Program-made: the position numbers
In this document: positions 59,581 to 62,500 of the stretch, piece after piece
Numbering within the stretch: the stretch's first letter is position 1
Layout: every line of letters begins with the position of its first letter
Source: Escherichia coli O127:H6 str. E2348/69
GTDB lineage: Bacteria; Pseudomonadota; Gammaproteobacteria; Enterobacterales; Enterobacteriaceae
NCBI RefSeq assembly: GCF_000026545.1
Contig: NC_011601.1
Direction: 5' to 3' (one strand)
Length of the DNA: 64,000 nt

Positions 59581-62500
59581 TCAATATGACAGGTCACCGT
59601 CTGGTTGATTAGTTCGGTCTTTTCTTCATCGAACGCGGTCCAGCCGGTACGTAACAGAATAGTTTCTTTGCCAAGACGAAACGCCAGAATCTCACCAATC
59701 AACGCATGGGTATGAAGGATCATGCGGGTATCGCTAGCGTCGCAGCCGGTCCAGGCGGCAATCAGGCGTGTAAGGTGACTGTGTAGCGGACTAATCACCT
59801 GTTCGTGCACCAGGTGGTAGGCTGCCGTGGGAGAGAGCTGCTCACGGGAGATAAATTTGCTGAGGTTGACGGTGTCATCCTGGGTGAGCAGCTTAATCAT
59901 GTTTCTGCAGGCGCGAAGGATCAGTTCACGGATGGCTGCCCGATCCGGCTGTGGTTGTGCGAACAAACGTTCGGCTTCTTCGGCGTGTGGACGGAACTGC
60001 TCGCCAATAAAATCAGCAATCCACTGGGCGCAGGCGAGGTACAAATCTTCTTTCGAACCGAAGTAGTAGGTGATGGCTGCGATATTCTGCCCGGCCTGGG
60101 CGGCTATCTCGCGGGTGGTGGCGTTCATTCCATATTCACCAAACTGTGCCAGTGCCGCAGCAATCAGCTGTTTTTTCGCCTGTTCACCCTTGATTGTCAT
60201 GGCAGGATTATTCATCGCACAGTCCATTCTTAATCAAATGATTGATTAAGATTATGACTCCATAGGGGAGTTGTCCAGTATGGCTAAGAATTTTAGCTAC
60301 GCCAGTCACAGGGATAATTTATGCGCTGCGTCACAAAAACTGCTACACTCCGCTCCCTCATGACATTGTGGTTTTTGTCATTTTCCTTTTCAGTATCTCC
60401 CTGAAAACTACACCGGTAACGGTCGGGGCGGTTCGGAGTAGTTATGTCTTTCGATTCTTTGGGTTTAAGCCCTGATATCCTGCGCGCCGTTGCCGAGCAG
60501 GGTTACCGTGAACCCACCCCTATTCAGCAGCAGGCGATCCCTGCGGTGCTGGAAGGCCGCGACCTGATGGCCAGCGCCCAGACCGGTACCGGCAAAACAG
60601 CGGGCTTTACGCTGCCGCTGTTGCAATACCTGATCACTCGCCAGCCGCACGCCAAAGGGCGTCGTCCGGTACGCGCGCTCATTCTTACCCCGACCCGTGA
60701 ACTGGCGGCGCAGATTGGCGAAAACGTCCGTGATTACAGCAAATATCTGAACATTCGTTCGCTGGTGGTGTTTGGCGGTGTCAGCATTAACCCACAAATG
60801 ATGAAGTTGCGCGGCGGCGTTGATGTGCTGGTGGCAACGCCGGGACGTCTGCTGGACCTGGAACATCAAAATGCAGTGAAGCTGGATCAGGTTGAAATCC
60901 TCGTCCTTGATGAAGCTGACCGCATGCTCGACATGGGCTTTATCCACGATATCCGTCGCGTGTTAACAAAACTGCCAGCGAAGCGCCAGAACCTGTTGTT
61001 CTCCGCGACCTTCTCTGACGATATTAAAGCCCTGGCGGAAAAACTGTTGCACAACCCGCTGGAAATCGAAGTGGCACGCCGCAATACCGCGTCTGATCAG
61101 GTGACCCAGCACGTTCACTTTGTCGATAAGAAACGCAAACGCGAATTGCTGTCGCACATGATTGGGAAAGGGAACTGGCAGCAGGTGCTGGTGTTTACCC
61201 GTACCAAACATGGCGCTAACCATCTCGCTGAACAGCTCAATAAAGATGGCATCCGTAGTGCGGCGATCCACGGCAATAAATCGCAAGGTGCGCGTACCCG
61301 TGCGCTGGCTGATTTTAAATCCGGCGATATTCGTGTACTGGTGGCAACTGACATCGCTGCGCGCGGCCTGGATATTGAAGAGCTGCCGCACGTGGTCAAC
61401 TATGAACTGCCAAACGTACCGGAAGATTATGTCCACCGTATCGGGCGTACCGGTCGTGCGGCTGCTACCGGAGAAGCATTGTCGCTGGTGTGTGTTGATG
61501 AACACAAACTGCTGCGTGATATCGAAAAACTGCTGAAAAAAGAGATCCCGCGCATTGCGATTCCGGGGTATGAGCCGGACCCGTCAATCAAAGCCGAACC
61601 GATCCAGAACGGTCGCCAGCAACGTGGCGGCGGTCGTGGACAGGGCGGTGGTCGCGGTCAACAGCAACCACGCCGTACGGAAAGTGGTGCGAAGTCTGGT
61701 AACGCGAAGCCCGCAGAAAAACCGTCTCGTCGTCTCGGCGATGCCAAACCGGCAGGCGAACAACAACGTCGCCGCCGTCCGCGTAAACCTGCCGCTGCGC
61801 AGTAATCTTTTATGCCGGGCTATGCCCGGCATGAGACTGATGACAAACACAAAACTGCCTGATGCGCTACGCTTATCAGGCCTACGTGAACTCTGCAATA
61901 TATTGAATGTGCATGTTTTTGTAGGCCGGATAAGGCGCTCGCGCCGCATCCGGCATTTCACAACAAGCACTTGTCAGCCATTTGCGAGCGCGGCAAAAAG
62001 ATTTCTCTGTTTTAACGCCCACAAGCCACCCGATGCGTTACTTCTCCGCAGCCAATTGTCCGCGCAACGCCATTAAAAGGTACCCCAGGCGATTCTTGCC
62101 CTGACCATTACCGCCATCTCCCCAGTAAGCATCATTTTGCGTATGCTCAACCAGTTTTGCGGACGCGGTTGCCAGCAAGAGTGTACGCAGTTCTGCATGT
62201 TGTTCGAATTTAGCGCGAAGCGCTTTACGCATCATCCTGCTGGTTATTGCGAGCCGCTTTCCAGAAACAGAAAAACCATTACCCCTGAAAACCGAAAAAT
62301 GCCACAATATTGGCTGTTTATACAGTATTTCAGGTTTTCTCATGGCATTAACCGCCGCGCTTAAAGCGCAAATTGCCGCCTGGTATAAGGCGCTTCAGGA
62401 ACAGATCCCCGACTTTATTCCCCGTGCGCCGCAGCGGCAGATGATTGCGGACGTCGCCAAAACGCTGGCCGGAGAAGAAGGGCGGCATCTGGCGATTGAA

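Follow-up and report, generated by a model that had tools for sequence, protein, structure and literature searches.

The rhlE-dinG interval and the ybiA remnant

The window analyzed here, a stretch of 64,000 nucleotides from the phylogroup B2 strain Escherichia coli E2348/69, carries on its plus strand the gene rhlE (60444..61805; a 453-aa ORF, as in the PGAP annotation) and the 5' part of dinG (62342..64000, continuing past the window end, as placed by the PGAP annotation of E2348/69 and Nissle 1917). Between them, on the minus strand and convergent with rhlE, lies a 3' remnant of ybiA (62038..62235), which was delimited by a Pfam NADAR match, by alignment to K-12 ybiA and by the PGAP coordinates. 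The space between rhlE and the remnant contains repeats (61850..61991) with sub-threshold Rfam matches to ES036 and naRNA4, which we take to be REP/BIME elements; in Escherichia sp. MOD1-EC7003, ybiA is interrupted by a further copy of the element. On the other side, the dinG upstream regulatory region (62241..62341, plus strand), defined by comparison of E. coli, E. albertii and cryptic-clade loci, includes the SOS (LexA) box AATATTGGCTGTTTATACAGTATTT (62306..62330, plus strand), recognized by reading the sequence, and the same 25-mer has been listed as the dinG SOS-box motif (PMC3009722). A simple promoter and terminator scan of 61750-62450 revealed no sigma-70 consensus or terminator on either strand, and an Rfam scan of 61700-62450 gave no match, even sub-threshold, in the remnant or the dinG leader.

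Alignment of the window to K-12 MG1655, in which the ybiA CDS is 483 nt long and encodes a protein of 160 aa, revealed that 298 bp are missing, namely ybiA codons 1-95 together with 14 bp 5' of the annotated ATG. What is left comprises 65 codons and a stop (198 nt): a junction codon for Met, where intact YbiA has Val96, then codons M97-K160 and the stop (TAA, 62038-62040). The first-pass annotation, made from the sequence and taking YbiA-family proteins to be ~160 aa long, had proposed that a deletion of ~0.3 kb removed the 5' half of the gene and that only the last ~66 codons of the local minus-strand ORF were conserved, and both proposals were borne out. That ORF encodes 101 aa and occupies 62038..62343 on the minus strand; its boundary at 62038 had been given correctly, while the other one, given as 62341, had to be moved to 62343.

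The only part of the 101-aa ORF that matches the NADAR profile PF08719 is residues 33-97, which cover profile positions 88-162 of 163 (E = 3.5e-18; 66.8 bits, above the family cut-off of 35.1). The NADAR domain (about 160 residues) is thus incomplete, and the NCBIfam equivalog TIGR02464 (riboflavin-intermediate N-glycosidase) scores 65.1 bits, below its cut-off of 73.7. Moreover, the ORF aligns to YbiA over its last 65 residues only. Its first 36 codons (62236..62343, minus strand) are not ybiA sequence: as the first-pass annotation had suspected in calling this part non-genic, they are the antisense of the dinG upstream region, LexA box included, and of the dinG start codon, and Pfam and NCBIfam profile searches gave no family match for residues 1-32. 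The ATG of the ORF (62341-62343) overlaps that of dinG (62342-62344). The 101-aa ORF exists only by chance: at the new junction, the frame happens to stay open across the antisense strand of the dinG promoter. Neither of the two outcomes that the first-pass annotation had set against its own reading, a K-12 ybiA of equal length at this position or a full-length alignment of the ORF to YbiA, was found.

A seven-allele alignment placed the deletion junction at the heptamer CGCATCA (62228..62234). In intact alleles, the sequence at codons 96-98 reads CGCATCA(C), and CGCATTA(T) is found 5-12 nt 5' of the ybiA start codon. Since base 62233 is of the left-copy type and base 62235 of the right-copy type, the crossover can be placed at about 62234. 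A single 298-bp deletion between the two copies eliminated the start codon along with the ribosome-binding region and codons 1-95, probably by short-homology slippage or illegitimate recombination. A search of E. coli genomes and protein clusters yielded no pre-deletion allele of the truncated lineage. In the window, the dinG upstream region is identical to that of K-12. The 101 bp of this region differ at 0-1 positions among 12 E. coli and E. albertii loci and are nearly identical in two cryptic-clade Escherichia loci. Because 105 bp upstream of dinG, including the SOS box, are untouched, dinG regulation is expected to be unchanged by the deletion.

Predicted loss of function and possible relaxation of constraint

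Mapping of residues through PDB 8BAU and PMC11543638 revealed that five of the eight ligand or catalytic positions of YbiA (E48, K55, R79, W89, and K93) have been deleted; these align to the ADP-ribose-contacting or catalytic E43, K50, R79, W89, and R93 of a solved NADAR. Mutagenesis showed that E43/K50 in the P. nicotianae NADAR and E88/K95 in the E. coli C7 NADAR are needed for activity (PMC11543638), and this N-terminal Glu/Lys pair aligns to YbiA E48/K55, so that the remnant lacks it; the fold of YbiA itself starts at T15 (PMC11543638). The three positions kept are E125, the subfamily-defining glutamate of the last beta strand, D130, and W133, with the motif LVEHTQNDAYW retained and E128, beside this site, changed to Q. 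Because the other ligand and catalytic residues are missing, the 65 remaining codons are predicted to be unable to make an active N-glycosidase or de-ADP-ribosylase. As expected of a pseudogene, the start codon and 14 upstream bp present in intact orthologues are also lost, and at the junction an AGGA stands just 2 nt before a second ATG.

The remnant differs by 8-10% from every intact E. coli ybiA; hence, the truncation is not a recent event in a gene like that of K-12. The truncated lineage has 4-5 non-synonymous changes of its own (A113T, E128Q, E151A, and E154G) against one synonymous, tiny counts, and three glutamates are lost through them; between intact ybiA alleles, pN/pS is 0.10-0.20. 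Relaxation of constraint after the truncation is indicated, on a number of substitutions too small for statistics. Moreover, among the database variants of the B2 remnant, one has a frameshift (P0020) and another a stop-loss (P0004).

Could the 65-aa or the 101-aa ORF nevertheless encode a functional small protein, i.e., a C-terminal NADAR fragment that has gained a new role under selection? Most copies in B2 and E. albertii have kept the frame open, many pipelines deposit the product (a 65-aa "swarming motility protein YbiA", for instance, on at least 1,000 contigs), and pN/pS between the remnant and intact alleles is 0.26-0.40, that is, below 1. However, most of this ratio dates from before the deletion, and the changes that are private to the truncated lineage, few as they are, run the other way. 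The loss of most ligand or catalytic positions, the missing native start with its 14 bp, the AGGA too close to the second ATG, the position of the 101-aa start within dinG's own start codon, the frameshift and stop-loss variants circulating in B2 and the PGAP pseudogene call (see below) all speak against a functional product as well, and we consider it very improbable. The 65-aa and 101-aa "YbiA" or "DUF1768" proteins deposited for B2 strains are annotation artefacts.

A tract shared with E. albertii

The truncation is not private to E2348/69. In Nissle 1917, UTI89, E2348/69, and Z135-6, PGAP independently labels the same 198 nt "NADAR family protein; incomplete; missing N-terminus", with pseudogene loci of the same coordinates in the first three (CIW80_RS21760, UTI89_RS03855, and H4J01_RS17010, respectively). 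The window shows no difference from E2348/69 over the 3.6 kb compared and none from Nissle 1917 over 61700-62500, and its rhlE haplotype was found in just six genomes. Among 5,426 complete E. coli genomes, about 1,120 carry the truncated allele. The gap between rhlE and dinG is a variable site, occupied by intact ybiA, truncated ybiA, espX2, or a toxin-antitoxin pair, and the four site alleles become identical from about 62241-62247 rightwards. The pseudogene was already known in RefSeq; what is new is solely the presence of this broken copy in the sister species E. albertii. We found no paper pairing ybiA with albertii, and the sole paper found to pair ybiA with "pseudogene" is a general survey.

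The deletion junction proved identical in nine E. albertii loci. Eight of these had been reached by way of the truncated protein, and the type strain (L009) was the only one sampled blind; the count of nine out of nine was therefore rejected as an allele frequency. Informative sites and divergence define a tract shared by B2 E. coli and E. albertii (61909..62240) that spans intergenic sequence, remnant, and junction, with its left boundary within 61850-61909, in the REP/BIME region, and its right boundary within 62240-62374. At 36 informative sites the window agrees with E. albertii and K-12 differs, against two at which the window agrees with K-12. The tract shows 6-8 differences in 332 bp to E. 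albertii and 37-38 in 330 to K-12, and the closest E. coli allele to that of E. albertii is the common B2 allele (98.6%). Divergence between B2 and E. albertii over the ~330 bp is 1.8-2.4%, a similarity far above that of both flanks, which, compared using Nissle 1917 and UTI89, differ from E. albertii by 5-7% overall and by 0.22-0.27 at synonymous sites; the tract is about 10 times less diverged between the species than neutral flank sites.

The shared junction and the roughly tenfold deficit of divergence relative to the flanks lead us to the view that the dead allele crossed the species boundary, very probably by homologous recombination, the crossovers probably lying among the REP repeats and within the invariant block upstream of dinG. 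The deletion occurred once, with one junction common to B2 E. coli and E. albertii. Loss of the same 298 bp in both by recurrent repeat deletion might be thought to be favored by endpoints in a short direct repeat, and ybiA has been lost in other ways in Escherichia, i.e., by a BIME insertion-deletion (MOD1-EC7003) and by replacement with espX2 or a toxin-antitoxin cassette. Independent deletions, however, would leave the surrounding sequence unlike, and what we observe is 36 linked substitutions in the 330 bp to one side of the junction, common to both species and absent from K-12, along with tract divergence far below that of the flanks, so that this almost certainly did not happen. Vertical inheritance of a polymorphism older than the E. 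coli/E. albertii split is highly unlikely as well. It would fit the several long-lived alternative alleles of the E. coli site and the unusually deep B2-K-12 divergence that extends left of the tract (6.3% in 61601-61900), but a pseudogene and intergenic tract separated since the split should be at least as diverged as the synonymous sites of the flanks (0.22-0.27) rather than by the observed 0.018-0.024, and strong, unexplained constraint on the remnant would be needed. Taken together, we hold with high confidence that this is a ybiA pseudogene, truncated at its 5' end and non-functional, which arose by one 298-bp deletion and whose allele has been exchanged between species.

As to the direction of this exchange, an early reading of the tract as clearly albertii-derived was dropped, since the nesting, distance-ratio, synonymous-site, and diversity results point different ways. 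To an origin in the E. albertii lineage, followed by import into the ancestor of phylogroup B2, we assign somewhat less than an even chance. In four-taxon distance ratios the truncated allele lies 8-12.6% from intact E. coli alleles, which are themselves 3-6.3% apart and belong to lineages with roughly equal flank distances to B2; synonymous divergence is 0.16-0.21 between remnant and intact alleles compared to 0.09-0.14 among the latter. No intact E. coli allele resembles the truncated one, and among 80 cluster members inspected there was no intact YbiA labelled E. albertii. On the other hand, B2 falls outside the E. albertii diversity (three private B2 changes vs. one change common to all E. 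albertii), the deep B2-K-12 divergence extends 300 bp left of the tract, where E. albertii is not B2-like, and the E. albertii sample is biased.

Just short of even odds likewise goes to the opposite course, namely export of the tract, as a deep haplotype native to B2, to E. albertii, where it then spread. B2 and K-12 are highly diverged across one continuous block (61600-62240), of which E. albertii shares the right half only; the distance of the tract to K-12 (11%) roughly equals the B2-K-12 synonymous divergence (0.12-0.13). Diversity of the tract within E. albertii is 0.6-1.8%, about one-third of the synonymous diversity of its flanks (up to 5.6%), and E. coli-like dinG segments in five of the nine E. 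albertii strains reveal that flow in this direction does occur at the locus. Export requires, however, that the intact ancestor of the B2 allele has died out or is not represented among 3,429 intact E. coli alleles, and the four-taxon ratio test leans against it. Queries with chimeric DNA and protein (window 3' part joined to the K-12 5' part), the protein query being limited by clustering at 90% identity, returned no intact allele with a remnant-type 3' end. A protein search using the 65-aa remnant returned short proteins and no 160-aa entries, which is uninformative on intact relatives.

Implications and relation to known systems

The truncation of ybiA is ordinary gene decay. Its practical consequence is that the YbiA N-glycosidase/guanine de-ADP-ribosylase of K-12 is missing from B2 strains, among them the probiotic Nissle 1917 and many pathogens of extraintestinal sites; hence, results obtained for K-12 ybiA (swarming, detoxification of riboflavin intermediates, and NADAR activity) do not transfer to these strains. 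We also considered that loss of YbiA may be favored rather than merely tolerated, since the dead allele crossed species and is common in two pathogen-rich lineages (B2 and E. albertii), and since other E. coli lineages have swapped ybiA for an effector gene or a toxin-antitoxin pair; we regard this as unlikely. YbiA can take ADP-ribose off guanine in DNA, and its gene neighbors the SOS-regulated dinG; were the loss indeed favored, it could alter the handling of DNA ADP-ribosylation by toxins or phages. The four-allele site and the gene-killing deletion that crossed species are small population-genetic points, which could seed a study of selected YbiA loss.

The RefSeq/PGAP pseudogene is the same feature as the one described here, its annotation being silent on the comparison with K-12, the junction repeat, and the link to E. 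albertii. Compared to K-12 YbiA (NADAR superfamily, YbiA subfamily; PDB 2B3W), the remnant is orthologous, occupies the same minus-strand place between rhlE and dinG and aligns to residues 97-160 without gaps at 87.5% amino-acid identity; lacking residues 1-95, the start codon, and the 14 bp upstream, it is a relic rather than a working member of the family. As in deletions between short direct repeats (microhomology deletions), the endpoints lie in 7-nt near-identical direct repeats, here exactly 298 bp apart, and one hybrid repeat copy remains at the junction; the probable mechanism is read from the scar, and the original repeat may have been 5-9 nt long. Homologous recombination between E. 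coli and E. albertii is recognizable as a short mosaic tract with an affinity sharply unlike that of its flanks, and other patches at the locus run in the opposite sense, with E. coli-like dinG in some E. albertii strains. The ybiA tract carries a gene-inactivating deletion and not a functional allele.

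The ybiA remnant, its junction and the dinG upstream region

The 101-aa ORF between rhlE (60444..61805, +) and dinG (from 62342, +) lies at 62038..62343 (-), within two bases of the position given in the first-pass annotation, which had read it as a 5'-truncated ybiA with only its last ~66 codons conserved and a non-genic N-terminal part. Our analyses bear out this reading. The match to PF08719 (NADAR) is confined to residues 33-97 (profile positions 88-162 of 163, E = 3.5e-18), codons 1-36 run antisense through the dinG SOS box region (62306-62330), and the ATG of the ORF overlaps that of dinG by two bases. 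The remnant itself (62038-62235, -) comprises a junction codon (Met at the Val96 position), codons M97-K160 and the stop codon. Alignment to K-12 MG1655 revealed that the absent 298 bp correspond to ybiA codons 1-95 together with the 14 bp preceding the annotated start codon, in agreement with the ~0.3-kb deletion proposed earlier. In a seven-allele alignment, the deletion endpoints fall in a short direct repeat. Intact alleles read CGCATCA(C) at codons 96-98 and, 5-12 nt before the ATG, CGCATTA(T). A single hybrid copy, CGCATCA (62228-62234), is left in the window; base 62233 matches the left type and base 62235 the right. Such a scar is typical of short-homology deletion, the mechanism by which the 5' part of ybiA was probably lost.

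From ~62241 rightwards, past the dinG start, the window does not differ from K-12. Across 12 loci from E. coli and E. albertii, the 101 bp immediately preceding dinG (62241-62341) carry 0-1 differences, and they are near-invariant in two cryptic-clade Escherichia loci too, a conservation far above what the SOS box alone would explain. Interspecies divergence of the adjoining coding sequence is 5-7%. A simple consensus scan of both strands (61750-62450) returned no promoters. Since this upstream sequence and the 25-mer at 62306-62330, given as the dinG SOS motif (PMC3009722), are intact, we expect dinG regulation to be unchanged by the deletion. Elsewhere in the window, CTGTTTTTTTATCCAG at 43160-43175 corresponds to the uvrB SOS-box core given in PMC3009722; hence, the uvrB LexA site is probably also present.

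One allele in two species

Among 5,426 complete E. coli genomes, of which 5,416 were accounted for, the rhlE-dinG gap (window 61806-62247; also compared at loci L003 and L007) is a four-allele variable site. It holds intact ybiA in 3,429 genomes, truncated ybiA in about 1,120, the type III effector gene espX2 in 542 (O157:H7 EDL933 among them) and a PaaA2-like antitoxin with a RelE/ParE toxin in 325. Neither the espX2 nor the toxin-antitoxin allele retains any ybiA or putative REP sequence, and all four converge to identity at 62241-62247, within about 8 bp of 62241. The truncation is carried by Nissle 1917 (identical to the window over 801 bp around the remnant), UTI89, UM146, 536, APEC O1, SE15, ATCC 25922, O25b:H4-ST131, NGF1 and E2348/69, all ten of which we take to belong to phylogroup B2. 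With the EPEC strain E2348/69, the window shows full identity throughout the 3.6 kb that were aligned.

Compared with each of the intact E. coli alleles analyzed, the remnant plus its left-hand intergenic stretch is 8-12.6% divergent, against 2-3.6% for the flanking genes, and complete-genome searches found no remnant-type 3' end on any intact E. coli ybiA. A scan of species-representative genomes with the SOS-box sequence led to the E. albertii type strain, which shares the remnant and junction (98.5% identity over 199 bp), while the last 406 bp of its rhlE are only 88.7% identical to the window. Eight further E. albertii assemblies share this arrangement; all were retrieved via the truncated protein, so the sample is biased. 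Within 61909-62237, the window agrees with E. albertii and K-12 differs at 36 sites, whereas it agrees with K-12 at two; beyond this run it follows K-12 over E. albertii. The shared tract begins between 61850 and 61909, in putative REP repeats, and stops between 62240 and 62374, either within the invariant block upstream of dinG or shortly after it.

That both species lost the same 298 bp independently is hardly conceivable given the 36 sites against two and a tract divergence of 1.8-2.4% between B2 and E. albertii (0.6-1.8% within the latter), compared with a between-species synonymous divergence of 0.22-0.27 in rhlE and native dinG. An ancient polymorphism retained by both species is scarcely less improbable, as the same disparity between tract and flanks opposes it. 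This pattern excludes both explanations, and we conclude that a single deletion allele has been exchanged between E. coli and E. albertii, homologous recombination having carried the dead ybiA across the species boundary.

As to direction, transfer from E. albertii to B2 has a little under an even chance. It is favored by the distance of the allele from intact E. coli alleles, which exceeds that among the intact alleles themselves by a factor of 1.6-3.4, a ratio similar to the inter-/intra-species one in the flanks, and by a synonymous divergence of 0.16-0.21 between remnant and intact alleles (0.09-0.14 among the latter). Passage from B2 to E. albertii is about equally probable: the deep B2/K-12 divergence (6.3%) extends across 61601-61900, where E. 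albertii is not B2-like, the tract-K-12 distance of 11% approximates the B2-K-12 synonymous divergence of 0.12-0.13, and within E. albertii the tract is about a third as diverse as synonymous sites in the flanks. Moreover, dinG is E. coli-like in five of the nine E. albertii strains, so flow in this direction does occur at the locus. The B2 and E. albertii allele groups are sisters, with three private derived sites in B2 and one shared derived site in E. albertii.

Mosaicism and variation around the locus

In those five E. albertii strains (L013, L016, L017, L019 and L020), the 5' 1.66 kb of dinG is 2.2-2.4% from the window, compared with 5.3-5.6% in the other four, and in E. albertii L018 the rhlE 3' end and REP segment are K-12-like. 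The rhlE-dinG locus is a hotspot of gene flow between the two species. The rhlE haplotype of the window (60444-61600) is rare, with at least 99% identity in only 6 of the 5,426 genomes (100% in E2348/69); other B2 strains differ by ~2%, at clustered positions (21 of them within 61088-61472, for instance), which suggests that the E2348/69 lineage has a recombination patch of its own. At 61601-61900, a stretch that takes in the REP region and the part of rhlE encoding the C-terminal tail, the pairwise distances among B2, K-12 and E. albertii are about equal (6.3-7.1%); hence, E. coli itself holds haplotypes there whose divergence matches that of the species split. RhlE is 448, 453 or 454 aa long, its glycine/arginine-rich tail being variable in length. 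In Escherichia sp. MOD1-EC7003 (L012, about 5368-5695 oriented), ybiA was inactivated independently: an additional copy of the REP/BIME element normally downstream of rhlE stands in place of the middle of the gene, leaving the 3' 157 nt and first 38 nt.

Predicted loss of YbiA function

We aligned YbiA to the P. nicotianae NADAR:ADP-ribose structure (PDB 8BAU), in which E43, K50, R79, W89 and R93 contact ribose or phosphate or are catalytic (PMC11543638). All five YbiA counterparts (E48, K55, R79, W89 and K93) are deleted, only E125, D130 and W133 remaining among ligand or catalytic residues; in E. coli C7 NADAR, the counterparts of E43 and K50 are needed for activity (PMC11543638). The native ybiA start and the sequence upstream of it are likewise gone. 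Unique to the truncated lineage are A113T, E128Q, E151A and E154G, versus one synonymous change (small counts), pN/pS between intact alleles is 0.10-0.20, and deposited B2 variants of the remnant show many more amino-acid changes, one frameshift and one stop-loss. Small as the substitution counts are, all evidence points the same way, to a dead remnant. It keeps the family profile match and C-terminal motif but lacks a complete domain, the N-terminal catalytic residues and an equivalog score (the ORF reaches 65.1 bits, under the 73.7 cut-off of the NCBIfam riboflavin-intermediate N-glycosidase). Hence, we regard the feature as the relic of a YbiA/NADAR family gene rather than a functional copy.

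PGAP already labels the exact 198 nt 'NADAR family protein; incomplete; missing N-terminus' in Nissle 1917, UTI89 and E2348/69, and 201 nt likewise in strain Z135-6, so the truncation itself is not new; other pipelines have deposited a 65-aa or 101-aa 'YbiA/DUF1768' protein. We found no mention in the literature searched of the cross-species dead allele or the four-allele site, which we regard as modest population-genetic observations. With a chimera of K-12 YbiA and the window C-terminus as query, the best matches outside Escherichia and Shigella fall at once to 68-75% identity, in planctomycete or metagenomic 'ribA/ribD-fused' proteins, and the best 120 protein matches of a word-based search, which may bias the result, included no other Enterobacteriaceae; ybiA may be a genus-specific acquisition.

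In K-12, ybiA has been connected with swarming and with detoxification of riboflavin intermediates and, more recently, with ADP-ribose removal from guanine in DNA; the gene is described as belonging, along with dinG, rhlE and ybiB, to a cluster under LexA control (PMC11125620, PMC11543638). At the rhlE-dinG locus of B2 strains, YbiA activity is predicted to be absent. The MG1655 gene, a 483-nt CDS encoding 160 aa (~160 in the first-pass annotation), is longer than the window copy, which lacks 298 bp of the MG1655 sequence.
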